From: an uncultured Thermoleophilaceae bacterium
Lineage (GTDB): Bacteria; Actinomycetota; Thermoleophilia; Solirubrobacterales; Thermoleophilaceae
DNA length: 39,200 nt
Reading direction: 5' to 3'
NCBI GenBank assembly: GCA_963757815.1
Contig: CAVWSN010000002.1
Location: 1-39,200, forward strand
Shown here: positions 2,471 to 29,495 of the stretch, piece after piece
Layout of the letters: each line of letters begins with the position of its first letter
How positions within the stretch are numbered: position 1 is the first letter of the stretch
The notes under the pieces: generated by a model
Databases searched by the model: none
The model's input: only the letters and a program-made list of their open reading frames with translations
What the model was told of the DNA's origin: nothing
Made by a program: the position numbers and the translations under genes

Positions 2471-5456
2471 TCAGTCGCGAGCTAAGGGACCTGGTCTAGG
2501 ACTCGTTAACCCGTCAGCCAGCCCGAGGCGGTGCGCGACTGCCGCCGCCTCCGTGCGCGAGCGGACGTCGAGCTTGGCCAGGATTCGCGACACGTGGACA
2601 CTCGCGGTCTTCTCCGCCATGAAGAGCTCGCGGCCGATCTCGCGGTTGGTGGCCCCGCGTGCCACGAGCGCCAGGACCTGACGCTCGCGCGCCGTCAGGC
2701 CGAAGGGGTCGTCCGGTTCCGCGGCCCGGGTGTGCGGCTCGGCGGGGACGTCCAGCCCCAAGCGGGCGCGACTCGCCAGGCCCTCGACCTCGTGGGTCAG
2801 CCATCCGGCGCCCAGCCGGCGCGCCGCCTCGAGCGCCGCGCGGGCGGCCTCCGCCGCCGCGTCACGATCGTCGCGAGCCAGGTGCGCCTCGGCCTCCCGC
2901 CAACGGGCCAGTGCCGCCGGGTAAGGCCGCTCGAGCGCTTCCCATGCCGCCGTCGCGGCCGCCCAAAGCGCGGGATCGTTTGCACCGGATGCGCGGGCCG
3001 CATCGGCCTCGGCTGTGGCGAGGTGCGCGCGCTGGATCGGCCCGCCGTTCTCGGCGGCTGCCCGAAGCTGCTCCAGGAACACGCGGAGCCGCTCGAGCGC
3101 CCGGGCAGCCTCCGGATCGTCGCCGACATCCCGCGCCCGCTGCGCGGCGTCGGCCTCCACCGCCACGCCGGCAGTGGCCAGGTTGCTGCCGAAACGGGCG
3201 AGGTCGTCGGTGCCGTGCTCGAGCCGGGCGAGCAGCCGTCTCGACGGTCTCGCGGGCATCGTCGAGATCGCCCTTACGGCGCAGCAGCTCGGCCTGTAGC
3301 CCGCCGATCGGTGCCAGGAACTGCGGCTCGGTCGAGTCCTCGAGCGTAGGGCGCATGCGCTCCAGCCACTCGGCGGCCTCGGCGTGTTCGCCTCTGCCGA
3401 TCGCCAGCTGGAGGCGGCCCAGCTCGATGACCAGCATCGTGCGGTCGTCGAAGCGGCGGCCCGGCTCCGGCAGCGCTCGGGCCGCCTCCTCCCAGTCGCC
3501 GAGGTCGAATGCGATTTCGCCCATCATGAAGTTGAGCCACTGGTGGGTATTCGGGCTGGTCGCGAGCTCTTCGGCACCCCAGCGCGCCGCCTCGATCGCG
3601 TCGCGGCTCCGGCCTGCGGCGTGCAGCGCATCGGCCAGGTTGACCGCCGCCGCGTCGATCTCCAGCGGGTCGCCGCGCTCGACAGCGATCTCGCCCGCCC
3701 GCCTGAGTGCGGCCGTCCCCTCTTCGATCTCGCCCAGCGGAATCAGCGCCGTCCCGAGCACGTTGAGCGCAACGCCGAGCGAGGCGGCGTCGCCGCATGC
3801 CTCCGCCACGCCCTGTGCCTCGCGCGCCTGCTCGACGGCCTCGCGCAGGCGCCCCTGGAACATCTGGCCTCGCGCCCACATGCCCAGGAGAGCGGCGCGC
3901 TCGGGCGAGTCCTCACCGGGAGGCAGCAGCCGGAGGCCGGCGCGCAGGGTGTCGAGCGCCTCGTCGGCGCGGTTGAGGTGCCACTGGAAGCGAGCCAGGC
4001 GCGCCATCATCCTCGCCGCCTTTCGCGGCTCGGCCGTCTCGTCGACGTCCTCGAGCGCGGCGCGCAGGAGCGCCTCCGCCCGGCTGCGCCGGCCCCCGAG
4101 GTTGTGGACCTCGGCCGCACGCCACATCAGGTCGCCGCGCTCGAGCCCGGCCACGGCCTCGGCGTTCGGAACCTGGTCCCACAGCTCGAGGGCCCGCTCG
4201 AGCAGCGCAGCCGCCTCGCTCGGGGCGCGTACCGCCTCTGCCGCGTCCGCCGCATGCATGCTCGCCGCGAGCGCAGCGGTGTGGTCGCCGGCCGCGAGGC
4301 GGTGGGAGGCGATCGCGGTGCTGATCGCGACGCTCGTGTCGCCGGCCGCCGACCGCCGCTCGAGGGCCTCGGCCAGCGCGCGGTGGAGCTCGATCCTCTC
4401 GCCCGGCAGCAGGTCGTCCTGCACCACTTCCCGCAGGAGCGCGTGACGGAACGCCAGCCTGCCGTCGGCGTCCACGACCGCGAGATGATTGGCGACCGCA
4501 GTGCGCAGGCACTCCTGGAGCTCGCGCGCGTCCAGCCCCGCGACCTCGGCCAGCAGGTCGTGGTCGAGCCGGCCACCGACCGCGAGCACGCGCAGGAGCC
4601 CCTGCGCGCGGTCAGGAAGCCGCTCGATCCGGAGCATCAGCGCGTCGCGCAGCGTCCGGGGGAGGGCGCCGCGGCCGTCGAGGCCCGCAGCCAAGAGCTC
4701 CTCCATGAACAGCGGGTTGCCCTCCGAGCGCGCGTAGAGGCGTTCCACCAGCTCGGCTGCCGGCGGGGCGCCGAGAATGTCGCCCAGCGCGCCGGCCAGC
4801 TCGTCACGCGTCAGCGGCGCGAGCTCGACGCGGCGCACGCGCGTATCGCGCTCAAGCTCGGCAAGCAGGGGGCGGAGCGGATGGCGGCGGTGCAACTCGT
4901 CGAGCCGGTACGAGGCCACGACCAGCACGCGTTCGTCGAAGAGGCTCCGCGCCAGGTAGGCGAGGAACGCCCGGGTCGAGCTGTCGGCCCAGTGGATGTC
5001 CTCCAGCACGAGCAGGACGGGGGCGCGCTCGCCCAGGTCGTGCAGCAGCGCGAGGACGGCCTCGAACAGTCGACCCTGGGCGCCTGTGTCGCGGCTGGGG
5101 GCGGGCCCCTCGCCCAACGCCGGCATGAGGGGAGTGAGCTCGGCGCGCGTGGCGGTGGGGAGGGCCTCGAGCGCTGCGTCACCGTCCCGCGCCAGCGGCC
5201 GAAGCGCCGTCAGGAGCGGAGCGTAGGGAAGCTCGCCGTCGCCGAGGTCGACGCACTCGCCGGAGAGCGTGTGGCCACCGCTTTCAGCGGCGCGCGCGAC
5301 AAGCTCGGCCACCAGCCGGGTCTTGCCCACCCCGGAGTCGCCTGCCACGAGCGCGAGGGAGGGGGCGCCCGATTCGGCGTCCGCGAACGCCGCCTCGAGC
5401 TCGGCCAACTCTGCCTCGCGACCGACCAAGCGGGAACTCGTGACCCGAGTGGCCAT
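2471..5456 (-). CDS. Large ATP-binding LuxR-family (LAL/MalT-like STAND) transcriptional regulator; one frame disruption near 3235
   Basis: N-terminal Walker A (AGDSGVGKT), DIHWAD Walker B-like motif, long TPR-like helical middle, C-terminal GerE/LuxR HTH ([43 protein letters not shown]). The 864-aa and 262-aa ORFs join across a 1-nt shift: ...ARETVETAA|RLLARLEHG... Confidence 0.75.
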
Positions 5457-5512: not shown

Positions 5513-8500
5513 TCACGGCCCGGCCTCGACAAGGCTCGTCGGCACCTCCAGCACGCGGTCGATGGTCGCGCCCTGGTAGTCGGCCGGCAGGCGCTCATCC
5601 CGTCGCGCTCCGGCCCGTCACGCGGAGCACGGTGAGCTTGGCGGGCGTGATGTCCCCGTTGCCGTCGAAGCGGAAGGTGCCCAGGATGCCGTCTTTCACC
5701 GCGACTCGCCCGCAGCTCCCGGAGCACCGCGGCCCGCGTCCCGTCGGAGCGGGCGATCGCCGTCAGGACCACCTCCGCGGCCTGCGCGGCATGGAGCACA
5801 TAACGCTCATCGGCAGCCGATCCGAGGTCGGCCGCGATGCGCCTGGCGGCAGGTGTGAGCCCGGGCCCGCCGGCCAGCAGATCCGGCGTCATCGCGTACA
5901 GGCCGCGGGCGGCGCGGCCGGCTCTCTCGAGCACGTCGGGGATCGGGGAGAGCCCGCTGGTCGCCATGATCGGCACGCGCGGGCCGAGGCGGGCGCGCAG
6001 GGCCTTCAGCACGCGGTCGCCGCCGCCGTCGTCCACGAAGGCGCCGAGCATGACGCCCTGCGCGTCCGACCGCGCGACCTCGTTCGCGAGCGCCTCGAAG
6101 CTCTTCGCCCCCGGGTCGAAAGCCTTCGCGCCGGCGATCGTCAGGCCGACCCGTTCGGCCGTCCGGGGGACGGAGTCGGTCAACAGCGTATCCCACAAGA
6201 CCCCGTCGTGGATCAGATAGACGCTCTTGAGGCCGAGCTGCGTTGCGAGCATGGCCAGCGCCGCACCCTCGAGGTCGTCGGTGGGTGACAGCCTGGCGTA
6301 GTTGCGCTCGCCGGTCGGGTAGAAGATCTCCGGCGCGTCCGGCGCGAAGCCTTGCTTCGTCAGATGGGGATGCGAGTTCGAGGGACTGACCATCGCCAAT
6401 GGGCCACCCGGCGCCCGGTTGAGAGTCGGGATCTCGACCTCCGCGCAACCCGAGCTGTACGGGCCGATCACCGCCACGAGCTTCTCCGCGCGCGCGTAGG
6501 CGTTCGCGTTGGCGGCGCACCTGCGGAGCTCGAAGCTGCCGCTCTGTGACGTGGAGTCGTCACACGACGCGTAGCCGACCGAGTGTTTGCCTGCCCTGAA
6601 GCCGTGCCGCTCGATCACCGACCGGATCGCGTCGGCCATCGCGCGCGGCCGCCGTACTGTCGGGGCCCTGGAGCGGGAGGTCGGAGGCCACCAGCAGGTC
6701 CGGGCTGCCGCCGCCCGCGAGCGACCTCGCCGCAGGCGAAGGCGGGAAGGGCGCCCGCCTCCGCCGCCCCCGCGACGCTCACCCACGCGGATCCCTCGCC
6801 TGCCGCGAGCGCCCTGGGAGTTCCGACCGCCATCCTCGCCGTGACAGCGTTCGTGCGCGGATCGATCCGCGAGACCGTGCCGTCGATGTAGTTGGCAGCC
6901 CAGACCGCCCCTTCTCCGAACGCGATGTAGCCAACGCCCACCCCGACCTCGATCGGCTTGGGTATGGGTCGCGGCCCCGGCTCGATCCGCCAAACGAGGC
7001 CCTCGTCCTCCGCCGTTGCCCAGACGGAACCGGCGCCGACCGCGATCGCGGGCAGTGCGTTGGCGCCGATCGGGATCGTCTGGGCGACGCGGTTCGTGCG
7101 CGGGTCGATGCGCTTGATCGCAGGCCGCTCCCAGGGTACGAACCACACGCCCTCCTCGCCCGCGGCCACGGTGGCGGCGGAGACGTCGATAGTCGCGACG
7201 AGCTCGCCCGGTCTCGGGATCGATGCGGGAGATGCTGGCGTCCGGGTTGCGCGCCCAGACGGCGCCGGCTCCGACGGCGATCTGCGGGTACCCCGTGTTC
7301 GGAGCGCCGGTGATGCCGCCGCCGCTCGTGTCGGGCAGCTTCAGGGTTCGCGTCACTTTCTCAGTACCCGGGTCGACCCGGGAGATGCTGACCGTGGTGG
7401 TGAAGTAGCGGCCGCCGCCGTTCCCGACCCAGAGCGCTCCCGCACCGACGGCCAGCTGGCTGGGCGTCCCGGGCGTCTTGACGCTTCCGGTGATCTCCTT
7501 CGTCTGCGGGTCGATGCGCGAGATCGCGTCCTCCCCGTCCTGCAGGGCCCAGACGGCGCCCTCCCCCGCGGCCACGTTCCCCGGCAGCGCCTCGGACTCT
7601 GTGAGCGACGCGACCTTGCCCGTCGCGGGATCGATCGCGGCGACCCCCGTCCCGAGCGGCTCAGTCCGAGCATCCTCAGCAGTCGTGAGCGCCACGATGG
7701 CCGCGGCGATCGCCGCCCCGAGCATCAGCAGGCCGGCTGCGAGGACGGCGCGGCCACGCCGGCGAAGCCCGCGGCGGCCCGAGCTGCCGGCGCGGCGGCC
7801 CGGGGAGGCGCGAGTCCAAGCGCCTCGGCCGCCGCGTCGATGAGCTCGCCGCAGCTTCGTAGCGGTCCTCGCGGTCTTTGGCGAGCGCCTTGCGCAGCAC
7901 CGGATCGAGCCGCGGGTAGCCCGCGCAGCGGGGCCGGCTGCTCCTGCATGTGCGCCCACAGTGATCTCGGCCTCGGTCGTGCGCCGGAACGGCGGCGCGC
8001 CGGCCAGGCACTCGTAGAGCACGCAGCCCAGCGCGTAGACGTCGGTGCGGCCGTCGACCGGGTCGCCGCGGATCTGCTCGGGCGCCAGGTAGTCGAGCGT
8101 GCCGACGACCCGGCCGGTGTCGGTCGAGTCGCCGCCGACCTGCTTGGTGATGCCGAAGTCCGTCAGGTAGGCGTGGCCGTCCTCGTCGAGCAGCACGTTG
8201 GCGGGCTTCACGTCGCGATGCACGAGCGCGCGCCGGTGCGCGGCGTCGAGCGCGCCCGGCGACCTGGGCCAGCACCGCCAGCGTCCGCTGCGGCGCAGCT
8301 TCCCCTCGCGCTCGAGGATCGCTCTGCAGGTCGCTGCCCTCGACGAACCGCATCGCCAGGTAGAGCTGGCCGTCGTGCTCGCCCGCCTCGTAGATCGGGA
8401 TCACGTTCGGGTGGTCAAGCGACGCCGCCAGGCGCGGCTCGCGCAGGAAGCGGGCCCGGAAGCGCTCGTCCTCGGCCAGCTCCGGCGCGACCAGCTTCAG

Positions 8501-8612
8501 CGCCACCGGCCGCTCCAGCGACAGGTCCGTCGCGCGGTAGACGACACCCATCCCGCCGCGGCCGACCAGCGACTCCACCCGATAGCCGGCAAAGATCGTG
8601 CCCGGTCTTCAT
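5513..8612 (-). pseudogene. Receptor Ser/Thr protein kinase copy A (STPK, TM helix, beta-propeller repeats, LivK-type PBP1 domain); at least 6 frame disruptions
   Basis: Kinase motifs [37 protein letters not shown] helix [21 protein letters not shown]. Repeated G.GAVWV.N...SRIDP.T blades. Leu/Ile/Val-binding-protein-like domain ([17 protein letters not shown]...IMATSGL). Pieces lie in at least 5 different ORF frames. ATG at 8612 overlaps the stop of copy B (TGACCATG). Confidence 0.7.
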
Positions 8613-8614
8613 GG

Positions 8615-11600
8615 TCAGCCCGACAGGCTCTTCGGCACGGTCATGACGCGGTCGACGACGGATCCGCGGAACCACTCGAACACACGAGCATCGGGCGGCG
8701 CGTGGCCACTCACGCGGAAGATCGCGATCTGGGCGGGAGTGATGTCCCCGTGGCGGTCGAGCCGGAAGTCGCCCAGGACGCCGTCCTCCACCTCGACGGT
8801 GCGAAGCTCCTGGAGCACCGATGCTCGCGTCCCGTCGGAGCGTGCGATCGCGTCCAGCACGACCTCGGTCGCCTGCGCCGCCGTCAGAACACCCTGGACC
8901 GGGTCGTCAAACGTCCCGAAGTCGCGCGCAAAGCTCCGCCCCGCGGGGCTCCCCTCGCGGGCGCTGGGTGGGACGTCCAGGGAGCTCATGTAGAGACCGT
9001 GCGCGGCCGGCCCGGCCAGCGTCGAGCAGGTCGGGCACGTCGCCGAGCGGCTCGGTGGCCATGATCACCGCACTCTGGCCCAGGCGGGCGCGCAGCGCCT
9101 TCACCAGCCGAGCCGCCACCTCCGCGCCGGCAAAGCCACCCATGAAGACGCCCTGCGCGCCGGAGCGAGCGACCCTCTGCGCGAGCGCGTCGTAGCTCTT
9201 CGCCTCGGGATCGAAGGCCTCGGAGCCGGCGACTCCGACACCCAGGCGACCGGCGGCCCTGCTGAACGGGTCCGTGTAAGTGATCCTCGGGCTCCCTCCG
9301 ATCCCATCCTGCTCGTGGAGCAGGAAGACGCGCCTCAGCCCGAGCTCCTTGGCGAGCATGGCCTGCGCCACGCCCTGGAGGTCCTCGCGAGGGACGACCC
9401 GGGCGAAGTTGCGCACGCCCGTCGGGTAGTAGATGCCTGGCTCTCTTATGCCGGGGCCCCCGACCTCGTCGAGCCGGCCGCCGCGGGTGAGCCCCGAGTG
9501 GGTCGCGATCGGGCTGACGATCGCCAGTGGGCCGCCAGGGGCCCGGTTCAGAATCGGGATCTGAACCGAGCCGCAGTACGAGGAATAGGGCCCGATCACG
9601 GCCACGAGCTGCTCCGCGCGGGCGAAGGCGGACGCGTTTGCCGCGCACTTGCGAAACTCGAAGCCGCCGGTCTGCGGGGTGGAGGGGTCGCAGGACTGGT
9701 AGCCGACCGTGTAGTCGCCGGCCCTGAATCCGCGCCGCTCGAGGGCGAAGCGGATCGCGCCCTCGATCGCTCGTGCGTCGCCGCTGACGGGACCCTGCAG
9801 CGGGAAGTCCGAGGCGATCAGGACGTCCGGGGTCCCACCGCCCGGAGGCGACCTCGCCGCAGCCCGCTGCGGTCAGGGCTCCCTCGGTCGTCCCGCCCGC
9901 CACGCTTACCCAGGCCGCGCCGGCGCCGGCGGCCAGAGCCTGTGGGGTTCCGATCGACGTCCTCGAGCTCACGTTGTTCGTGCGCGGATCGATCCGGGAG
10001 ACCGCGCCGTCGACGTAGTTGCCCGTCCAGGCCGCCCCCTCGCCGAAGGCGACGAGGCTCACGCCCTTCCCGACGTCGATCGACCTCGTGATCGGCCGCG
10101 GCCCGGGCTCGATCCGCCAGACGAGGCCCTCGCCCTCCGCGGCCGCCCACACCGAGCCGGCCCCGACTGCCACCCCCAGCAGGCCGGTCGCGGCGATCGG
10201 AATCGTCTCCGCCACACGATTCGTGCGCGGGTCGATCCGTCGGACCGCCGGCGGATCTCGTCAAGCGCGAGGAACCAGACTCCCTCCTCGGCCGGCGGCG
10301 ATCGTCCACGCGCCGAACTGGGATCTCGATCGTCGCGACGAGCCGTCCGCTCTCGGGATCGATGCGCGACACGCTCCCGTCGGGGTTGGCCGCCCAGACC
10401 GCACCGGCGCCCACGGCGATCCGGGGCGCGCCCGCCACCGGGTACACGCCCTCGTCGCCTCGGAGCCGCACGGTTCGCGTGACCCGGCCCGAGTCGGGAT
10501 CGAGCCGGGAGACGCTGACCGTGGCGTTGCTGAAATCTCCGCCGCCCGCGTTCCCGATCCATAGCGCACCCTCGCCGGCCGCGAGCTCACTCGGCACGCC
10601 GGGGGTGTCGAACGTCTCCGTGACCTCCTTCGTCTCCGGGTCGATGCGAGAGACGGTCCGCTCCTCGTTGTTCAGCGCCCAGACCGCGCCCTCGCCCACC
10701 GCGACGTTGCCCGGCGGCGTTCGCGACTCGGTGAAGGACGTAACGTCACCGTCCGCGGGGTCGATCGCGGCAACTCCGTTACCGATCGGCTCGGTTGGGC
10801 TGTCGTCACCGCCGGTGAGGGCGACGACCGCCAGCCGCGATGACTGCGGCCAGCAGGAACAGGCCGGCGGCCAGCAGGCGCGCGGCCTCGGCGCCGTAGT
10901 CTGGCTGGTGCGAGCGGGCGCCGGGGTGCCTGTAGTCCGAGCGCCGGCGCGGCGGCGTCGATCAGCTCGGCGCAGGTCTTGAAGCGGTCTTCGCGGTCTT
11001 TGGCGAGCGCCTTGCGGAGCACCGGGTCGAGCCGCGGGTAGCCGCGCAGCGGGGCCGGTTGCTCCTGCATGTGCGCCCACAGGATCTCGGCCTCGGTCGT
11101 GCGCCGGAACGGCGGCGCGCCGGCCAGGCACTCGTAGAGAACGCAGCCCAGCGCGTAGACGTCGGTGCGGCCGTCGACGGGGTCGCCGCGGATCTGCTCG
11201 GGCGCCAGGTAGTCGAGCGTGCCGACGACACGGCCGGTGTCGGTCGAGTCGCCACCGACCTGCTTGGTGATGCCGAAGTCGGTCAGGTAGGCGTGGCCGT
11301 CCTCGTCGAGCAGCACGTTGGCGGGCTTCACGTCGCGATGCACGAGCGCGCGCCGGTGCGCGGCGTCGAGCGCCCCGGCGACCTGGGCCAGCACCGCCAG
11401 CGCCCGCTGCGGCGGCAGCTTCCCCTCGCGCTCCAGGATCGTTCGCAGGTCGCTGCCCTCGACGAACCGCATCGCCAGGTAGAGCTGGCCGTCGTGCTCG
11501 CCCGCCTCGTAGATCGGGATCACGTTGCGGGTGGTCGAGCGACGCCGCCAGCCGCGGCTCGCGCAGGAAGCGGTCCCGGAAGCGCTCGTCCTCGGCCAGC

Positions 11601-11743
11601 TCCGGGGCGACCAGCTTGAGCGCCACCGGCCGCTCCAGCGACAGGTCCGTCGCGCGGTAGACGACACCCATCCCGCCGCGCCCGACCAGCTCCTCGACGC
11701 GATAGCCGGCAAAGATCATGCCGCGGCTCAAAGCTGCCTTCAT
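8615..11743 (-). pseudogene. Receptor Ser/Thr protein kinase copy B (same architecture as copy A); about 7 frame disruptions
   Basis: N-terminal [29 protein letters not shown]. Full kinase domain in the 346-aa [20 protein letters not shown]. Propeller blades in the 641- and 409-aa ORFs. PBP1 domain in the 232- and 124-aa ORFs, ending ...VMTVPKSLSG*. Example indel: ccgcaacgtg here versus ccgaacgtg in copy A. Confidence 0.7.
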
Positions 11744-11846
11744 GCTGCGCTCCCCAAGGGGGCCGAGTCCATGACCGACCGTACCACGGGAGGGGCGGCG
11801 CCACCGGGCGCCGCCCCTCGTGGGCAGACGGGGTCGCGTGGGTGGC

Positions 11847-12417
11847 TCAGTGAGCCGCCACCCCAGCGCTCCGGCCGCGCCTGCGCCCGGTCAGCATCAG
11901 GGCCGATCCGGCCGCGATGCTCAGCAGCGCCAGCATGCCGGCCGCGCCGATGCCTGCGTCGGCCCAGTCGAAGCCGCCGGACGGCCCGCGGACCTCGACG
12001 ACCGGGGAAGCCGCCGTGATCTCGCCGATGATGCGGTTCACCATCTGCTGCACCTCGGGCGACTCGACAAACCTGCGCTCCGAGTCCGTGTAAATGCCCG
12101 GCGCGCGAATGCGTGACCGGCGGCAGGTCCCGGGCGGCGTCGGCCGCATCGGGCGAGCCGTAGCCCCGGTTCAGCGCATACGGACTCCGGTCGGCCTCGT
12201 GCAGGCCGCGCTGCTCGGCCGCATCGACGGTGTCGGGCGAGCGCAGGTCCTGGTACTCGTCGGCGGCCGAGGCCGCAATCGAGGACGGGGGCGGAGCAAC
12301 GTCGCTGTTGGCGGCGGCCCCACCGGAGCGCAGGTCCTCGTACGGGGCGGCGGACGCCGGCACGGCGCACACAGCCAGGAGGGCCGCGGTGGTGAGGATG
12401 TGGCTACGTCGAAGCAT
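11847..12417 (-). CDS. Secreted repeat-containing hypothetical protein with C-terminal TM anchor (one apparent frameshift near 12130)
   Basis: Signal peptide [25 protein letters not shown]. Acidic repeats YEDLRS../EYQDLRS../..DAADAARDL. The C-terminal part (other frame) ends with hydrophobic helix [18 protein letters not shown] followed by RRRGR. Confidence 0.4.
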
Positions 12418-12529
12418 GTCTCCTCCTTCAGGGCCGGCCGCCCCATGCGACCGGATTCGCGGACCAGCTTCCGCCCGGCCGGTTGCAGCGCGGGTAGGTC
12501 CCGGGTAGACGCCGGTAAACGGCGCGCGG

Positions 12530-14128
12530 CTAGCGCGCGTGTCCGGTCAGCGACCAGCTGAAGGGCGTGCGGGTGTCGGCCGGCGCAAGGCCGTCCGGTC
12601 GCGTCCCACGCCTCACTAATACCGTCGGCGCCGGCGGGGACTTCGCTAGCTCCCCCCGCACCCGGCCGAGCCCCTCCTCGCGCCAGCGCTCCGACAGCCC
12701 CACCACGAGCAGGGCGGCTCCCTCGGCGAGTGCGGCCACGCCCTCCCGGCCCGGGCTCGCGAGCAGCGGCTCGGCGACGATGCCTGCCGTGCGCTGGACG
12801 ATCAGTGAGGCGTCGGCGAGCAGCCGGCTCGCGTCGCGTGCCTCCGCGCCGCGGTCGGCGGCGGAGCCGATGAGCCGCAGCGGGGCGTCCGTGGCGCGGG
12901 CAACCCAAGCGCCGAGCCTGAGCGCCGCCCAGTCGTGCGCCCCTGCGCCGAAGGGCACCACCACAGGCCCCTCACCCAGCGAGCCGCCGGCCTCTGCAAG
13001 CAGGGCCACGTCGCAGGGTGCCTGTTCGAGGACCACGCGCGCGTCGCCGTCCAGCGGCGACGGGCCGGCATCCATGAGGAGCAGATCGACGTTCTCCTGG
13101 CCGGTGAGCCGGACGATGTCCTCGCCGCGCCGAGGCGAGGAGAACGCCGCGGTCCTGGCTACGAGTCCGGCGGCCAGCAACCGGTCGCGGCGTTCGGCAA
13201 GAGCCGCAGTGGCGGCAGCAAGCTCCGCCGGCGGGACGACGCCAGCGACGATCAGCTCGTGGGGGGACTCCGAGGCCGCCAGCGGCTCGGCGAGCCGAAG
13301 GAGCGGGTCGAGCCCGGGCAGCGCCCGCGGCACGATCAAGAGCGCGCGTTCCGCCACCGCTGCCTCGGGCGCCGCCGGCTCCCGCGGCGCGCCGTCCGCA
13401 AGGTCGAGCGTCGGGTCCTGACGCAGGATCGCCTGCTCGAGCCGCTTCAGCTCCTCGCTGGGCTCGAGGCCGAGCTCTTCCGAGAGCTCGCGCCGAGCCA
13501 CCTGGTAGGCGTCGAGGGCCTCGGCCTGGCGAGCCGAGCGGTAGAGCGCGAGCATGAGCTGGAAGCGCAGCCGCTCCCGCAGCGGGTTCCGGACGATCAG
13601 CGCCTCGAGCTCGCCGACCAGCTCGGCGTGGCGCCCGACGGCCAGGTCGGCATCGATCCGCTGCTCGAGCACGGCTATCCTGAGCTCCTCGAGCCTGGCG
13701 ATCTCGGGCTGGGCGAACGGCTCGTACGCCAGGTCCGCGAGCGGCGACCCGCGCCAGAGTGCAAGCGCGTCGCGAAGCTTGCGCGCGGCCCGTTGTGGAT
13801 CGGTCCGCCGCGCCTCGTCCGCCAGCTGCTCGAAGCGGGCCAGGTCGAGCTCGGACGGCTCGACATGGAGCATGTAGCCGGGCGCGTGCGTGGCGAGCCG
13901 GCTGGTGCCGATCTGCTTGCGCAGCCGTGAGACGTAGACCTGAATGCTCTTGGCGCACGTTGCCGGCGGCGTGGCCCCCCACAGCTGGTCGATCAGGCGG
14001 TCGGTCGAGACGAGCTCGTTCGACTGGAGCAGAAGGATCGCCAGGAGCGAACGCTGCTTGACCCCGCCGAGAGCAAGAGGCCGATCACGCTCGACCACCT
14101 CCAGTGGGCCAAGGAGCCGAAAGTCCAT
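12530..14128 (-). CDS. SARP (AfsR/DnrI-type) transcriptional regulator with C-terminal tandem Usp-like domains
   Basis: ATG at 14128. N-terminal OmpR-type winged helix MDFRLLGPLEV..LLAILLL. BTAD (LDLARFEQLADEAR...LMLALYRSARQAEAL). C-terminal half shows two Usp-like alpha/beta units (ALLIVPRALPG...; GPVVVPFGAGAHDWAALRLGAWVARATDAPLRLIG). Confidence 0.75.
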   Translation of the reverse strand: MDFRLLGPLEVVERDRPLALGGVKQRSLLAILLLQSNELVSTDRLIDQLWGATPPATCAKSIQVYVSRLRKQIGTSRLATHAPGYMLHVEPSELDLARFEQLADEARRTDPQRAARKLRDALALWRGSPLADLAYEPFAQPEIARLEELRIAVLEQRIDADLAVGRHAELVGELEALIVRNPLRERLRFQLMLALYRSARQAEALDAYQVARRELSEELGLEPSEELKRLEQAILRQDPTLDLADGAPREPAAPEAAVAERALLIVPRALPGLDPLLRLAEPLAASESPHELIVAGVVPPAELAAATAALAERRDRLLAAGLVARTAAFSSPRRGEDIVRLTGQENVDLLLMDAGPSPLDGDARVVLEQAPCDVALLAEAGGSLGEGPVVVPFGAGAHDWAALRLGAWVARATDAPLRLIGSAADRGAEARDASRLLADASLIVQRTAGIVAEPLLASPGREGVAALAEGAALLVVGLSERWREEGLGRVRGELAKSPPAPTVLVRRGTRPDGLAPADTRTPFSWSLTGHAR

Positions 14129-14230
14129 ACCCGAGTCGTTGCGACCGTAGCACGGGTCCCCGATTAACCCGGCAGCCCCGCTCGGTCCTAAGAGGAGAGC
14201 CCACAAGCCGGCGGAGGAAGAGGAGAAACG

Positions 14231-14614
14231 ATGAGCTTGAGCGGATACGAGGTCAGGACATCGATTGCGGTCTCCGACATCGCCCGGGCGGCCGAGTTCT
14301 ACGAAGGGAAGCTCGGCCTCGCCGCGGCGGAGAGTCAGCCCGACGAGAGCCGGATCTACGCGTGCGGGGGCGACACCTCGCTGCACGTCTACGCCTCTCC
14401 CGCCCACGCCGGGAAGGCGACCGCGACCCTGGCCACCTGGTACGTGGCCGACCTCGAGGAGGTGGTCGACGAGCTCCGCTCGCGCGGCGTGACGTTCGAG
14501 CGCTACGACGACCCCTCGCTGGGGGCCGACGAGAAGGGGATCCACGAGCTCGACAACGGTCGGGTCGCCTGGTTCAAGGATCCCGACGGCAACACCTTCG
14601 CGCTAGAACAGTAG
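14231..14614 (+). CDS. VOC/glyoxalase-bleomycin resistance family protein
   Basis: 127-aa ORF with typical VOC fold sequence (SIAVSDIARAAEFYEGKLG...WFKDPDGNTFAL). Confidence 0.8.
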   Translation: MSLSGYEVRTSIAVSDIARAAEFYEGKLGLAAAESQPDESRIYACGGDTSLHVYASPAHAGKATATLATWYVADLEEVVDELRSRGVTFERYDDPSLGADEKGIHELDNGRVAWFKDPDGNTFALEQ

Positions 14615-14631
14615 GGCCGCCCAAGCGAACC

Positions 14632-15348
14632 ATGCCGAGATCGATCGCGCACCGGGAGGACGAGACGCTCGTCGCGGCGCTCTGCCGCGGCGATGCGGAT
14701 GCTTTCGCGATTCTCGTCGACCGCCACAGCCCCGCGATGATTCGCGTTGCGATGGCCTACGTGCCGACCCGGGCGGCCGCCGAGGAGGCCGTGCAGGAGA
14801 CCTGGATCGGCGTGATGCGCGGGATCGACGGATTCGAGGGCCGCGCCTCGCTCAAGACGTGGATCTTTCGCATCCTCACCAACGTGGCTATGCGAAGCGG
14901 CGCCCGCGAGCGGCGAAGCATGCCCTTCTCGGCGCTGGCCGAAGCGGAGAACACCGGCGAGCCGTCGGTCGACCCCGATCGCTTCCTCCCGGCCGACCAC
15001 GAGCTCTTCCCCGGTCACTGGGCGATCATGCCCGTGCGCTGGCCCACGCCAGAGGAGGGGCTGCTGGCCGGCGAGACGCGCGAGGTGATCACCGCCGCGA
15101 TCGCCGAACTGCCGCCGGCGCAGCGGACCGTGATCGCGCTGCGGGACGTCGAGGGTTGGAGCTCTGAGGAGGTCTGCGAGGCACTCGAGATCTCGGCCGG
15201 GAACCAGCGGATCCTGCTCCACCGCGCGCGCAGCCGGGTCCGGAACGCGATCGAGAGCTACTACGGCGCGGTCGAGGAGATCGACTACGACGCCGTAACG
15301 GCGGAGCTGATGGGCGACACTGCGAAGAAGAGATCGGATTCCGAGTGA
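14632..15348 (+). CDS. ECF-type RNA polymerase sigma-70 family factor
   Basis: Region 2 (FAILVDRHSPAMIRVAMAY..QETWIGVMRGIDGFEG) and region 4 (LPPAQRTVIALRDVEGWSSEEVCEALEIS). Starts 17 nt after the VOC gene. Confidence 0.85.
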   Translation: MPRSIAHREDETLVAALCRGDADAFAILVDRHSPAMIRVAMAYVPTRAAAEEAVQETWIGVMRGIDGFEGRASLKTWIFRILTNVAMRSGARERRSMPFSALAEAENTGEPSVDPDRFLPADHELFPGHWAIMPVRWPTPEEGLLAGETREVITAAIAELPPAQRTVIALRDVEGWSSEEVCEALEISAGNQRILLHRARSRVRNAIESYYGAVEEIDYDAVTAELMGDTAKKRSDSE

Positions 15349-15611
15349 TGGCCGACCACGTCCATAACGAGTCTGAGGAGCTCGCCTGCGTCCACGTAGT
15401 CGAGCTCGTGACCGACTACCTCGAGGGCGCGCTGCCCGAAGCCGACGCGCGGCGACTGGAGCGTCACCTCGGCACGTGCCCGGGCTGCGGCGAATACCTC
15501 GAGCAGCTGCGCGCGGTCTCCGGCTCGCTCAGGGGCCTCACCGAAGAGTCGTTCCCGGCCGAGATCCGCGACGGCCTGATCGCCGACTTCCGCGGCTTCC
15601 GCCACCGCTGA
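15348..15611 (+). CDS. Zinc-binding anti-sigma factor (ZAS family)
   Basis: HxxxCxxC motif (HLGTCPGCGEY) plus upstream Cys. Start ATG overlaps the sigma-factor stop (TGATG). Confidence 0.75.
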   Translation: MADHVHNESEELACVHVVELVTDYLEGALPEADARRLERHLGTCPGCGEYLEQLRAVSGSLRGLTEESFPAEIRDGLIADFRGFRHR

Positions 15612-15654
15612 GCCGCTCCGTAACGCCCGCCGCTCCCGCTGTAACTGAGAGGGC

Positions 15655-17229
15655 ATGACGCGGAGAAACGCTCACGCCACCCGACGGGAATGGATCGGCC
15701 TCGCGGTGATCGCGCTGCCGTGCATGGTCTACGCGATGGACCTCACGGTCCTGACGCTCGCGGTGCCCTCGCTAAGCGCCGACTTGAGCCCGAGCAGCAC
15801 CGAGCTGCTCTGGATCGTCGACATCTACGGCTTCCTCGTCGCCGGCTTCCTGATCACGATGGGCACGCTCGGCGACCGGATCGGCCGCCGCAGGCTCCTC
15901 CTGATCGGCGCCGCCGCGTTTGCCGTCGCCTCGGTGGTCGCGGCGTTCTCGTCGAGCCCCACGATGCTGATCGCCTCGCGCGCGCTGCTCGGAATCGCGG
16001 GGGCGACGGTGGCGCCTTCCACGCTGTCGCTGATCCGCAACATGTTCGAGGACCCGCGCGAGCGCACCACGGCTATCGGGATCTGGATCACCAGCTTCTC
16101 GACCGGCGCGGCAATCGGCCCGCTGGTCGGCGGCGTGCTCCTCGAGAGCTTTCACTGGGGGTCGGTCTTTCTCTTGGCGGTGCCGGTCATGGTGATGCTG
16201 CTGGCGATCGGCCGCAGGTTCCTCCCTGAGTACAAGGACCCGAACCCGGGCCGGCTCGATCTGGTGAGCGCGGCGCTCTCGCTCGTGGCCGTCCTGGCCG
16301 TGATCTATGGCGTCAAGGCCATAGCCAAGGACGGAATAGGACTGGCGAGCGTGGCGCCGGTCCTGGCCGGGCTCGCGGTCGGCTCCGCGTTCGTCGAGCG
16401 CCAGCGCCGGCTGGCCGAGCCGATGATCGACCTGGGGCTGTTCCGCCGGCGGGCCTTCAGCCTGGCGCTGAGCGCCAACACCCTCGGGTTTGCGGTCCTG
16501 TTCGGACTCGAGGTCTTCGTCGCCCAGTACTTCCAGCTCGTGCTCGGCTACTCGCCGCTCGAGGCGGGGCTGTTGAGCCTGCCCGGGGCGGCCGCGTTCG
16601 TGGTCGGCTCGCAGCTCACGCCGCCGCTCGCGGCACGTGCCCGGCCCGCGGTCGTGATGCTCGGCGGGCTCCTCGTCGCAACAGTCGGCGTATCGCTGCT
16701 CACGCAGGTTGGGGTGGCCGATGGCCCGGGTCTCATCGTGGCCGCCGTAGTGATCCTCTCGCTCGGCCTCGCGCCCCTGTTCACGCTGGCCGCCGACATC
16801 GCGGTCGGAAGCGCTCCCCCCGAGCGAGCCGGCGCCGCCTCGGGCATCTCAGAGACGAGCTCCGAGCTGGGCGGCGCGCTCGGGCTTGCGATTCTCGGCA
16901 CGGTCGGCACGGCGGTGTACCGCGGCCACACCGCCGACGCCTTCCCGGCCGCGGTGCCGGCCGACGCGGCATCGACGGCGAGCGACACGCTGGGTGGCGC
17001 GGTCGAGGTCGCCGACCGGCTGCCGCAGCTGCTCGCCGCTGACGTGCTCGAGCCCGCCCGCGACGCGTTCACACAAGGGCTTCAGGTTGCGGCCACCGTG
17101 AGCGGTGTCCTCGTGGTCGCGGCCGCCCTCATGGTCGCGAGGCTCCTGCGGAGCGGCGACAAGCCGCAAGAGTCAGAAGAGCGAGCGGCTCCGTCGGTCG
17201 CGCTCGCGACCTCGCAGCCATGCGCATAG
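15655..17229 (+). CDS. MFS transporter, DHA2 (EmrB/QacA) drug:H+ antiporter family, 14 TMS
   Basis: 524-aa hydrophobic ORF. MFS motif GTLGDRIGRRRLL. About 14 predicted helices. Confidence 0.85.
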   Translation: MTRRNAHATRREWIGLAVIALPCMVYAMDLTVLTLAVPSLSADLSPSSTELLWIVDIYGFLVAGFLITMGTLGDRIGRRRLLLIGAAAFAVASVVAAFSSSPTMLIASRALLGIAGATVAPSTLSLIRNMFEDPRERTTAIGIWITSFSTGAAIGPLVGGVLLESFHWGSVFLLAVPVMVMLLAIGRRFLPEYKDPNPGRLDLVSAALSLVAVLAVIYGVKAIAKDGIGLASVAPVLAGLAVGSAFVERQRRLAEPMIDLGLFRRRAFSLALSANTLGFAVLFGLEVFVAQYFQLVLGYSPLEAGLLSLPGAAAFVVGSQLTPPLAARARPAVVMLGGLLVATVGVSLLTQVGVADGPGLIVAAVVILSLGLAPLFTLAADIAVGSAPPERAGAASGISETSSELGGALGLAILGTVGTAVYRGHTADAFPAAVPADAASTASDTLGGAVEVADRLPQLLAADVLEPARDAFTQGLQVAATVSGVLVVAAALMVARLLRSGDKPQESEERAAPSVALATSQPCA

Positions 17230-17239
17230 AGGCCGCACG

Positions 17240-17638
17240 TCACTCGCGGCGAGCGATCTGCGGGCCCACGCGGACGACTTCGGGGGTCTCCTGCTGAGCC
17301 CAGTCAGGGGGATCGACGCCCTCGCTCTTGGCGGCCATGCGGGCGAAGTAGCGCTCGAAGCCGGCAGGGGTGCACACGATCAGCGCCCGAGCAGGGGCGC
17401 CGCTGTGGTTGGCGTAGGTGTGCGGGACGTCGCGCGGCGCGAAGGCGAGCTCGCCCGCCTTGCGCGTGAACACCTCGTCCCCGAGCTGGAACGTCAGCTC
17501 CCCTTCGATCACGTAGAACGCCTCATCGAAGCCGTGGTGGTGAAGCGGTGGGCCGTCGAACCCCGGGCCCGAGCTGACCTCGATCGCCGAGACCACGGCG
17601 TCGCTCTCCTCGCTACGCAGTAGGACCTTGGGTGGCAT
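17240..17638 (-). CDS. Cupin-domain protein
   Basis: 132 aa. Cupin motifs (PLHHHGFDEAFYVIEGEL...; two-His motif). ATG at 17638. Confidence 0.7.
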   Translation of the reverse strand: MPPKVLLRSEESDAVVSAIEVSSGPGFDGPPLHHHGFDEAFYVIEGELTFQLGDEVFTRKAGELAFAPRDVPHTYANHSGAPARALIVCTPAGFERYFARMAAKSEGVDPPDWAQQETPEVVRVGPQIARRE

Positions 17639-17658
17639 GGAACGTGCTCCTTTCGCGG

Positions 17659-18099
17659 TTAGGCCTGTACGGCTTGGACGACGGCGGCCAGCTGCTCGGT
17701 CAGGACCCGCATGACCTCCTCGCGGGGCAGGCCGCGCTCGCGCATCGCGTCGAGTAGCGACTCGGCGAAGGCCACGTAGGCCTCGAGCGTCGCGCGGGCC
17801 AGCGGCGAGGGGTCGCGCGTGCCCAGGTTGTTCTCGGCCACCATGTCGACCACGAGCCGGGTGTAGCGCTCTGACGTGGCGCGCGCCTTGGCGTCGCCGG
17901 AGCTCGCCGCCGCGCGGCGGGCGGCCCATGCGGCCGTCGGTCGCGCCGCGTGGTCGACGAGCCGCGCGAAGTTCGCCGCCACGCGCTGGTCGAGCGGAAC
18001 GTCCGGGTCGACCGACCAGTCCTCGGTCAGCTCAACAGCTACGCGCAGGCGTCTTCGCCGCTCCCCGGGCTGCGCAGCGCCGACGTGCGCACGCAGCAT
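17659..18099 (-). CDS. Hypothetical protein
   Basis: 146-aa ORF, 21 nt upstream of the cupin gene on the same strand. No confident family. True start uncertain, and it overlaps the alternative extension of the plus-strand 18202 gene. Confidence 0.3.
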   Translation of the reverse strand: MLRAHVGAAQPGERRRRLRVAVELTEDWSVDPDVPLDQRVAANFARLVDHAARPTAAWAARRAAASSGDAKARATSERYTRLVVDMVAENNLGTRDPSPLARATLEAYVAFAESLLDAMRERGLPREEVMRVLTEQLAAVVQAVQA

Positions 18100-27395: not shown

Positions 27396-28196
27396 TTACG
27401 GCGTTAGCGCGACCGCCGCCTCCGGCGTGGCCACGTGGAAGCTGAAGCTCTCCTCGAGATAGAGCCGCACCGCTTCGCCGTCGTGTGACTCATACCCGAT
27501 CGACACGTCCTGGCCCGAGTCGAAGATGAAGTCGCCGCCTCGCTGGCTCAGCAAGAGGGCTCCGGTCACGCCCGGCGCCCATACGATCGGCCCTTCGACG
27601 ATCCTGCGCAGGTGCTCCAGCAGCGGGTAGCCACCGTGTTCGGCCGTTTCGATCACCAGGCGATATTGCTCGCTCCCGAGCGCCAGCCCGTATGGCCCGG
27701 CGATACCGCTCTGCAGCAGGCGCTCGACCGCGCCCGCCACTGCCCGCGGATAGCCGTCGGCGGCCTTCCCGAGCGGCATCGGTTCATGGGGCGAGCTGTC
27801 GCCGATGCCGCTCGTCGCGCCCTGCCAGCCGTGGAACACGGCGACGTTCTCGGCCGTCGCGATCTGATGCGCGGCCTTGTCGAGCGCCTCGAGGTCGGTG
27901 TCATCGGCGCCACGATCGGCGTCACGCAGCTCCGCCCTGGACAGCTCGAAGTCCGCGCGCAGCTCGACCAGCGGCAGTACGCGCCGCTGAAGTCCGGACA
28001 CCCCTTCGGCGGGGGCGGACGCGAGCGGATCCGTGCGCCCCAGATTGGTCGCCGAGTGCTCCCAGCCACGCGGGCCGGCGAAGTCGACCAGCTTGCGGGC
28101 GGCGAGCGCCGGCGCCAAGCGGTCGCGCGCCTCGCCGTCGAGCAGCTGCCAGCCCGACTCGGTGATGGGGGCGTGCTCGCGCAGCAGGTGGTTCAT
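27396..28196 (-). CDS. Family 1 encapsulin shell protein (linocin M18-like)
   Basis: 266 aa from MNHLLREHAPITESGWQLLD… to …SFSFHVATPEAAVALTP. Co-linear with mycobacterial/Brevibacterium encapsulin (…RRVLPLVELRADFELSRAEL…GPYGLALG…IGYESHDGEAVRLYLEESF). Confidence 0.85.
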   Translation of the reverse strand: MNHLLREHAPITESGWQLLDGEARDRLAPALAARKLVDFAGPRGWEHSATNLGRTDPLASAPAEGVSGLQRRVLPLVELRADFELSRAELRDADRGADDTDLEALDKAAHQIATAENVAVFHGWQGATSGIGDSSPHEPMPLGKAADGYPRAVAGAVERLLQSGIAGPYGLALGSEQYRLVIETAEHGGYPLLEHLRRIVEGPIVWAPGVTGALLLSQRGGDFIFDSGQDVSIGYESHDGEAVRLYLEESFSFHVATPEAAVALTP

Positions 28197-29207
28197 CGCG
28201 ATGCCCCCTTCAAGCTTCCGATCGCGAGCGAGCCGTCTCCCGGACGTAGCCTCGGCCGTGGACGATGGAGCGGGGCCTGGCGTCGGCGGGTCGTCGAGGA
28301 AGCCGACGGTGGGCACGAAGAACAGGTTGCCCGTGACCGCCGTGGAGAAATCGAGGATCCGGTCGTAGTTGCCCGGCGGCTTGCCGATGAACATGTTCGT
28401 GAGCATCTGCTCAATCACCTCTGGGTTGCGGGCGTAGCCGAGGAAGTAGGTGCCGAATTCTCCGGCCCCGACGCGGCCGAACGGCATGTTGAAGCGCGTG
28501 ATCTGGAGTTGGTCGCCGTTCTCGTCGACGATTGTGTTCAGCGCCACGTGCGAGTTGGCCGGTTTCACCTCGTCGGGGAGTTCGATGTCGTTGAGCTTGG
28601 TCCGGCCGATCGCGCGCTCCTGTTCCTCGACCGGCAGCGCATCCCAGGCCTCCAGGTCGTGGACGTACTTTTGAACGACGACGTAGCTCCCGCCCGCGAA
28701 CTCCGGGTCCTCGTCACCGATCAGGACTGCGGCAGGCGCCGCTGCTCCCTCTGGGTTCTCGGTGCCGTCGACGAAGCCGAGCAGGTCGCGTTCGTCGAAA
28801 GACCTGAATCCGTGGACCTCATCGACCACGCGCGCGTAAGCGGTGAGCCGCCCGGTCAGCCGTTGCGCGAGCTCGAAGCACAAGTCGAGCCGATGGGCCC
28901 GGATGTGGAACAACAGATCGCCGGGCGTCGTGGGCGCGCTGTGCCTCGGGCCGGCAAACTCGGGAAACGGATGCAGCCCATCAGGACGCGGTGCGCCGAA
29001 CAGCCGATCCCACACCCCAGCGCCGACACCGACGACGCAGGTCAGCTCTCCCTCGGGAATCCGGAAACCCACGGACCGCTTGAGTCCGCTGAGATCCGAT
29101 AGCACATCGCGGACCCCGTCCTCGGCCCCCGAATCCACGGACAGCGTCAGGAAGATCGCCGCCTCGGTGATCGGGGTCAGAATGGCTTGCGGCTCACTCG
29201 CCTGCAT
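28193..29207 (-). CDS. Dye-decolorizing (DyP-type) peroxidase cargo with C-terminal encapsulin-targeting peptide (1-nt frame disruption near 28255)
   Basis: DyP core (…AAIFLTLSV…GFVDGTENP…HVALN…FGTYFLGYA…GNLFFVP). The -1 frame carries the terminal …PGDGSLAIGSLKGASR*, a canonical SLxIGSLKG targeting peptide. Its TGA overlaps the encapsulin ATG (ATGA). SD GGAGG lies before the ATG at 29207. Confidence 0.8.
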
Positions 29208-29495
29208 CACGCCTCCATAGCTCGCGCGCTCGCCAGCCTACCCGGGTTCGCAGCCGGCGACCCGGGCCGACGGCGAGCGTGGCGGGTTCGGGCTGGAGCG
29301 GCGATCAGGCCGAGGCGCTGCCGACGAGAAGGAGGCGGGGGCTACGTGTGCGACGTACCGTGTTGGGCGAATTAGCGGTGGCCGCCACGCGGGCGACGCG
29401 CCAAGGTAGGGCTGGCCTGAATCGCGGTTTGGTGCTGGCCCCGAAGACAGCGTGAGTCGCAGGGGGGATCGTTCTGTGCATGACACGGACCCGCC

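Follow-up and report, generated by a model that had tools for sequence, protein, structure and literature searches.

How can two adjacent receptor genes carry nearly the same catalytic domain while their sensor domains have clearly diverged? This question is raised by a tandem pair of kinase genes in the DNA of an uncultured Thermoleophilaceae bacterium (GenBank assembly GCA_963757815.1, contig CAVWSN010000002.1). Positions 1 to 39,200 of this contig were analysed and are called the window here. The two genes, copy B (8615-11743, the upstream gene) and copy A (5513-8612, the downstream gene), are arranged head to tail on the minus strand, and each codes for a Hanks-type receptor Ser/Thr kinase. 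Patchy intrachromosomal gene conversion, probably mostly from B to A, best explains the near-identical kinase modules in our view, and we give this reading a probability of about 0.6.

Once frame-corrected, B has ~1040 and A ~1030 amino acids, with the same order of domains: a kinase domain, one transmembrane (TM) segment, a DUF6923/YVTN-like beta-propeller, and a type-I periplasmic-binding domain (Peripla_BP_6). The Pkinase family (PF00069) is matched at 158 bits in A and 167.8 bits in B (Pfam gathering cut-off 31.7). DUF6923 (PF21959), which sits between the TM helix and the periplasmic-binding domain, scores 56.2 and 53 bits, respectively (cut-off 27), and the internal repeats of the propeller show as off-diagonal blastn matches. 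Peripla_BP_6 (PF13458) is C-terminal, past the single predicted TM helix, and scores 67.3 and 63.1 bits (cut-off 31.7). Among solved structures, PknE (2h34, E 6e-68) and PknB (E 1e-60) of M. tuberculosis match the kinase module best. The Gly-rich loop, the VALK lysine, HRD, DFG, and APE were checked and are all present in A and B; motif sequence amounting to 23 residues and LAPE are readable in both frame-corrected translations. The ATG of A lies 2 nt past the TGA of B, and therefore the two genes are probably co-transcribed.

A sharp step in identity at the end of the kinase domain

When the two units are aligned globally as DNA, successive 100-nt intervals are 93-98% identical between A 8603/B 11723 and about A 7900/B 11020, and identity then drops abruptly to 55-79% for the remaining ~2.3 kb. 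Over the initial ~40 nt that follow the start codons, A and B are only ~86% identical. The core tract covers kinase subdomains I-XI and lies at 7890-8560 in A and at 11012-11680 in B, the putative main donor. It contains 16 substitutions in ~670 nt, that is, 97.6% identity, plus six single-base indels. Five of these are specific to A (four extra bases and one missing, at 8325, 8296, 8254, 7962, and 7922), and B has one extra base at 11527. The list of differences, the codon classes, and the site patterns against related loci were drawn up over this tract.

Directly after the end of the kinase domain (KDREDRY), identity between A and B is 62-66%. This is the juxtamembrane linker and TM region, at 7681-7889 in A and 10810-11011 in B, each with a predicted TM helix of 20 residues (~7740-7681 in A). 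The sensors follow. That of A (5513-7680) consists of the propeller at ~7650-6700 and the periplasmic-binding domain at ~6700-5513, and that of B (8615-10809) has the same parts at ~10790-9830 and ~9830-8615. In the frame-corrected proteins, the kinases are identical at 240 of 245 residues (98%), the propellers at 64%, the periplasmic-binding domains at 55%, and the whole sensors at 59%. A preliminary description of this DNA, made from its letters and ORF (open reading frame) translations, had put the kinase modules at ~98% identity in DNA and the sensors at ~60% in protein, with about one difference per 60 nt between 7981-8100 and 11101-11220. The windowed pairwise alignment agrees with these estimates: 2 of the 120 positions in that interval differ (A 8059 and 8020), and the two sensor peptides quoted for A and B are both found in the ORF translations. 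Identity along the unit is thus not uniform.

The similarity extends to synonymous positions. Among the 24 kinase codons that differ between A and B, 17 differences are synonymous and seven are non-synonymous. Identity at third codon positions is 0.917, as against 0.565-0.769 in eight other tandem pairs. The wider family was compared using 85 genes with kinase and sensor modules, taken from 77 fetched loci (L numbers below) plus the window, with a DNA identity matrix for each module. For the 618 gene pairs with a sensor DNA identity of 0.65-0.70, the mean kinase identity is 0.793 and the 99th percentile is 0.883. The A/B pair of the window, with 0.955, is the maximum among these pairs. The nine other tandem pairs have kinase identities of 0.77-0.89, and strong homogenisation is seen in one lineage only among the 10 tandem pairs. 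The similarity of the A and B kinases far exceeds chance or ordinary domain conservation.

The relationship between the copies changes along the gene. Site patterns were scored among the window genes (wA and wB) and their sensor orthologues in L003 (L3A and L3B). In alignment columns 100-700, the paralogues are grouped by genome at 18 sites and by ortholog at none. After column 800, 2 sites group by genome and 534 by ortholog. The switch coincides with the end of the kinase domain. Consistent with this, the kinase modules of A and B are 0.955 identical to each other, 0.86-0.88 identical to those of their sensor orthologues, and ~0.91-0.92 identical to those of their positional orthologues.

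Among the contigs scanned, the best matches to the window are L003 (92%, over the pair only) and the syntenic L082 and L044 (85-99%). L082 (ENA ERZ25039469 contig_31033) has the same gene order as the window, that is, a SARP regulator, a small ORF, kinase 1, kinase 2, and a LuxR-type regulator. Its flanks are 92-99% identical to those of the window and each kinase module is ~91-92% identical, while the sensors reach only 66-86% (66-84% for the sensor of A against gene 2, and 74-86% for that of B against gene 1). Among syntenic relatives, the position-1 genes come closest to the B kinase, with 90-96% per 150 nt against L082 gene 1 and 92% against L004 and L044. The two kinase modules of L082 itself are only ~85% alike. 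Such a difference, despite flanks of 92-99%, indicates that the homogenisation is specific to the lineage of the window and is later than its split from L082.

An old duplication without any recombination, in which purifying selection acted more strongly on the kinase than on the sensor, would also leave the catalytic part more similar. Indeed, the kinase is more conserved than the sensor in every paralogue comparison of the family (mean 0.79 at sensor identities of 0.65-0.70). This account is nevertheless practically negligible, and selection alone is excluded because synonymous sites are homogenised (0.917 at third positions, compared with 0.57-0.77 in other tandem pairs). The unhomogenised modules of L082, the extreme rank of the window pair among the 618, and the sites that group paralogues by genome all point in the same direction.

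Separate histories of kinase and sensor modules

The family is large in soil metagenomes, where 7971 of the 8000 scored candidates were found at E <= 1e-20. The best metagenome matches to B are intact proteins of 1033-1036 aa that are 85-86% identical. The named genome matches are metagenome-assembled genomes (MAGs) of Thermoleophilaceae and Solirubrobacterales, many of them from the Microflora Danica long-read set. Members of the family are often clustered: L009 and L016 each have three tandem genes, L003 (1-22391) has at least five family genes or fragments within 22 kb, and several MAGs, such as MFD09267.bin.2.216 and MFD08497.bin.1.25, have at least 4-6 family copies on separate contigs.

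The sensors of the window have close relatives at other loci. The sensor of A shares 94-95% DNA identity with A-type genes of L003, L016, and L078, including 95% with an intact gene of 1029 aa (L003:12394-15483). The sensor of B shares 91-95% with B-type genes in L003, L009, L001, and L002. The kinase modules of these genes do not follow their sensors. For the pairs A/L003_12403 and B/L003_9280, the sensors are 94-95% identical (0.90-0.94 at third positions), whereas the kinase modules are only 85-88% identical (0.73-0.74 at third positions). L003 has the sensors of the window at 95% but none of its flanks. In addition, the kinase type of the window belongs to a group with 86-96% pairwise kinase identity that is attached to at least four sensor types, including one in the short-read contig L004. 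Among the A-type sensor orthologues (window 5513-7680, L003:13294-15483, and L016:14077-16163), divergence at first and second codon positions (3.7-4.9%) comes close to that at third positions (6-9%), a hint that selection on this sensor is relaxed or diversifying.

Identity is patchy even inside the sensor when B of the window is compared with L044 and L004. The sensor alleles of B and L044 appear to be old, since their third codon positions are only 66% identical. Taken together, these comparisons support frequent homologous exchange within the family, which would be recombinogenic in general. Kinase and sensor modules with separate evolutionary histories in an abundant uncultured soil family have a practical consequence: whole-protein trees or orthology calls would therefore be misleading.

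A broader reading, which we entertain only tentatively, is that the locus is a population-level hypervariable receptor cassette system. The kinase modules and the flanking regulators would serve as homology arms that swap old, diverged sensors between Thermoleophilaceae genomes, and ectopic conversion would keep the kinase output uniform. Several observations fit such a system: sensors form islands of 66-86% identity between genomes with flanks of 92-99%, near-identical (95%) sensor alleles occur in non-syntenic contexts, one kinase type is combined with at least four sensor types, and the sensor alleles of B and L044 seem old. The locus would be more interesting if this model were true. A metagenome scan for A-type sensors gave four loci, of which one was useful (L078); this locus is without the upstream kinase module and is thus uninformative on whether conversion has recurred.

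Exchangeable sensors would also suit another history, in which the whole B gene was recently duplicated and the sensor of the new copy was then replaced by an imported A-type cassette. The sensors do behave as such a cassette would, being 95% identical to those of the non-syntenic L003 and only 66-86% identical to those of L082 between flanks of 92-99%. However, the order of a B-like sensor followed by an A-like sensor already exists in L082, L003, L009, L016, and L078. Moreover, the A kinase retains the position-2 states of the second L082 gene (L82_2) at 16 sites, as against 3, and so descends partly from the old second gene. Duplication followed by sensor replacement is accordingly very improbable.

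Patchy exchange and the quality of the consensus

About 22 residual differences between A and B in the tract were compared with L082. A matches L082 gene 2 at 16 sites and the alternative at 3, and B matches L082 gene 1 at 15 sites and the alternative at 5. Since 15-16 of the ~22 differences are ancestral and paralogue-specific, the residual differences are to be read as old states rather than new mutations. A single clean conversion followed by new mutations is ruled out, and so is the recent one-piece swap of the 5' module that the preliminary description had offered as one possibility.

The remaining differences are not scattered evenly. By hand count, the converted blocks in A are ~8546-8491, 8330-8143, and 8107-8005, and the unconverted or less converted stretches are ~8598-8561, 8486-8407, and 7963-7895. 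A runs test by hand gives 15 runs, compared with ~22 expected, so that the site order is clustered in blocks. The sequence shared by A and B is mostly in position-1 (B-type) states, as judged against L082 gene 1, L004, L005, L006, and L012. About 8 shared sites are in position-2 states, for which L082 is the sole outgroup and homoplasy at G/C third positions is likely. The shared states are thus biased ~3:1 toward the B type; ancestry per site (B/K1-type versus A-type) interleaves almost randomly and was used only for this coarse bias. The interleaving probably comes from homoplasy and from earlier recombination in the reference genes.

We infer the following course of events. A and B would be old tandem paralogues of a large receptor Ser/Thr kinase family of Thermoleophilaceae, soil Actinomycetota. 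In the lineage of the window, non-allelic homologous recombination would have taken place between the directly repeated kinase segments, which lie 3.1 kb apart. Most of the kinase module of A would have been overwritten by B sequence, with a few sites changed in the reverse direction. This would have involved several short or patchy conversion tracts that ended together with the kinase domain, at the point where homology stops. The outcome would be two receptors with sensors that are 59% identical and a catalytic module that is 98% identical, and both receptors would be expected to phosphorylate the same substrates. The preliminary description had already proposed conversion confined to the kinase module. 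That proposal gains from the synonymous sites, the phylogenetic switch, the outlier rank among 85 genes, and the unhomogenised pair in L082; the homogenisation itself is patchy.

The reading frames complicate this picture. Neither A nor B has an uninterrupted reading frame as assembled, a point that the preliminary description missed. The ORF fragments of B are spread over three frames. There are at least nine frame shifts in A and at least seven in B, traced by codon-usage Viterbi, three-frame tracing, and alignment to intact orthologues (including those of L001 and L003). Nearly all are 1-nt insertions outside homopolymers, and about two thirds of them add a C to the coding strand. In alignments to L082, the SARP gene and the LuxR-type gene (5438-3439) have no gaps.

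Similar interruptions are found elsewhere in the family, with 117 frame shifts per 177 kb in long-read loci versus 5 per 83 kb in short-read contigs. The density in non-family genes was unusable, as false gene-boundary calls dominate it (0.66 per kb even in short-read contigs). The Microflora Danica MAGs, which are the source of close relatives, were assembled with metaFlye from Nanopore reads alone and polished in a single Medaka round (PMC12313526). L044 and L082 are independent assemblies of one species (97.4% identity), and their kinase genes (10001-12600) differ by 5-6.6% substitutions and 23 small gaps of 1-3 nt. Of these gaps, 19 are single-base, and most are extra bases in L044 only. 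The flanks (10 kb) differ by only 0.2-2.7%, with few gaps. The kinase locus is a strain-polymorphic hot spot, also for consensus indels. The ~15-20 frame-breaking insertions in A and B are most likely consensus errors at such a locus, probably in a Nanopore metagenome. The kinase family thus sits at strain-polymorphic loci where a Nanopore-only metagenome consensus gains single-base insertions, and automatic annotation will label such genes as pseudogenes or fragments, as for L003, L044, and L082.

The frame shifts could alternatively be real, in which case both genes would be decaying pseudogenes and the similarity of their kinases would be without functional meaning. The at least 16 frame breaks in the pair beside clean flanking genes, and the heavily frameshifted gene of the syntenic L044, speak for such decay. 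Gene decay in bacteria is deletion-biased, though, and the breaks here are almost all 1-nt insertions. No nonsense substitutions and no larger out-of-frame deletions occur in the pair, the differences between the kinases are 17 synonymous to 7 non-synonymous, and the catalytic motifs are intact. Furthermore, family genes in short-read contigs are intact almost without exception, and the insertions of L044 are absent from L082. We regard decay as distinctly unlikely. If all frame shifts are sequencing errors, an identical kinase could plausibly serve two receptors of different ligand specificity, as the preliminary description had it, because the kinase proteins are 98% identical with all catalytic motifs.

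Several points weigh against gene conversion. The pair has ~15 frame shifts in 6.1 kb (5513-11743), compared with none in seven other long genes of the window, and with such an abnormally poor consensus over 6 kb the fine-scale site patterns may be partly unreliable. B-like and A-like states also interleave at very short range, for example at 8303/8302, which would take a large number of events, homoplasy at G/C third positions, or else an artefact. The residual differences reflect genuine paralogue states and hardly any site is swapped, as partial restoration by polishing would leave them, and a collapsed or chimeric consensus that was partly restored by polishing would also yield a near-identical pair. 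A second independent assembly of this exact lineage was not found in scans of genome contigs and metagenomes. Finally, frame shifts that were real would make both genes pseudogenes and sink the functional reading.

One rival is that kinase segments of ~85-92% identity, or alleles of co-occurring strains, were merged or cross-polished during long-read metagenome assembly. In that case no single genome would have the high identity, which would belong to the consensus alone. The confinement of frame shifts to the kinase pair within the window speaks for such an artefact, as do the Nanopore-only, one-round polishing behind close relatives, the excess of frame shifts in long-read loci, and the evidence from L044 and L082 that the locus is strain-polymorphic and hard to polish. 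On the other hand, two complete units, each with its own sensor, came out of the assembly. Reads anchored in unique sensor DNA easily span a repeat of 670 nt, so that of the ~80 differences expected, polishing should have recovered almost all and not just ~20%. No indel in the kinase tract is common to both copies, which argues that each consensus has its own reads behind it. The ~3:1 bias of the shared states toward the B type is unlike the 1:1 expected of merging, converted and unconverted sites are clustered, and the discordance between kinase and sensor is also seen in short-read contigs such as L004. The ratio of 17 synonymous to 7 non-synonymous differences was considered as proof against a collapse and was dropped, as restored true paralogue differences give the same ratio. 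The partial collapse raised in the preliminary description is thus weakened by the copy-specific indels and the two resolved sensor contexts, and kept alive by the poor 6-kb consensus; we consider it rather unlikely. The case for a domain-restricted exchange depends on read-level confirmation.

Neighbouring genes and comparison with known systems

The pair is flanked by two regulators on the minus strand. Upstream, a SARP/AfsR-type regulator with Trans_reg_C and BTAD domains in Pfam (12530-14545) is 89-96% identical to L082 and served as a marker of the syntenic locus. Downstream, an AAA_16 and TPR regulator of the LuxR type (2862-5456) is 93-99% identical to L082 over 5438-3439. The ORF of the latter has a low-complexity Arg/Pro-rich end and is without the GerE (LuxR) domain present in its 985-aa ortholog in L082. 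The frame probably breaks near 3239, and identity to L082 drops to 82-88% at this place as well. Possible single shifts were noted there (~3239) and also, upstream of B, in the small ORF (~12114). At 12158-12357, in or beside this small ORF between the SARP regulator and B, there is a length difference of ~100 nt from L082, with 42% identity and 102 gap columns in the 200-nt interval.

Downstream of kinase gene 1, the same-species contigs L044 (12600-18100) and L082 (12600-16260) are not collinear. In L082, the second kinase gene follows directly and then the LuxR-type gene, while L044 has ~5 kb of other coding sequence at this place (~14060-14953 on the plus strand and ~15009-18001 on the minus strand). 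The LuxR-type gene of L044 is only 90% identical to that of L082. Elsewhere in the window, one ORF of 604 aa (27396-29210, minus strand) combines a DyP-type peroxidase, with Dyp_perox_N and Dyp_perox_C complete at residues 8-302, and, at residues 339-589, a shell domain of the encapsulin type (Linocin_M18). Either cargo and shell are fused here, or the loss of a stop codon has joined two genes.

In architecture, A and B resemble the mycobacterial PknE, PknB, and PknD, which also have an N-terminal kinase, one TM helix, and an extracytoplasmic sensor. PknD also has a beta-propeller sensor. In A and B, however, a DUF6923/YVTN-like propeller is followed by Peripla_BP_6, and Thermoleophilaceae MAGs have several copies of the family, often in tandem. 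In a shallow literature search, nothing specific was found on this kinase/propeller/periplasmic-binding architecture in Thermoleophilia. The clusters of receptor-like kinases in plants are tandem arrays with diversifying ectodomains and similar kinase domains, and recombination or conversion occurs among their members. They are eukaryotic, have LRR ectodomains, and are unrelated by descent to A and B beyond the kinase fold, and the likeness may be one of resemblance only.

Intragenomic conversion or concerted evolution is found in bacteria in tufA/tufB, rRNA operons, the PE_PGRS/PPE pairs of M. tuberculosis, and babA/babB of Helicobacter. These cases are similar to A and B in their RecA-type non-reciprocal exchange within one chromosome, in paralogues that are more alike than orthologues, and in mosaic tracts. 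Most of them either make entire genes uniform (tuf, rrn) or generate antigenic variation, whereas the tract in A and B is one domain of a receptor. Bacterial intragenomic gene conversion is also a subject of PMC6053082, PMC1762029, and PMC12046097. Ectopic conversion as a process in bacteria is already well known. The same shallow search gave no description of domain-confined conversion in Hanks-type kinases. If real, the pair would be a clear bacterial case of domain-restricted concerted evolution in a signalling receptor, in which two sensors are held to one kinase output.

Gene conversion in the tandem mammalian TLR1/TLR6 was reported by Kruithof et al. in 2007 (PMC2077338). According to that report, conversion has left the paralogues more alike than the orthologues over a bounded region with the signalling domain in it, and the ligand-binding part has diverged, as in A and B. 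There are also differences. TLR1/TLR6 are eukaryotic, conversion affects their C-terminal part (LRR16-19, TM, and TIR), and it is reported to have recurred independently in nine species. In A and B, by contrast, the converted part would be the N-terminal kinase, and strong homogenisation is seen in one lineage only out of 10 tandem pairs. The two systems seem to have a common logic, with a shared output module and diversified inputs. If the exchange between A and B is real, these receptors may follow, by analogy, the design logic reported for TLR1/TLR6.

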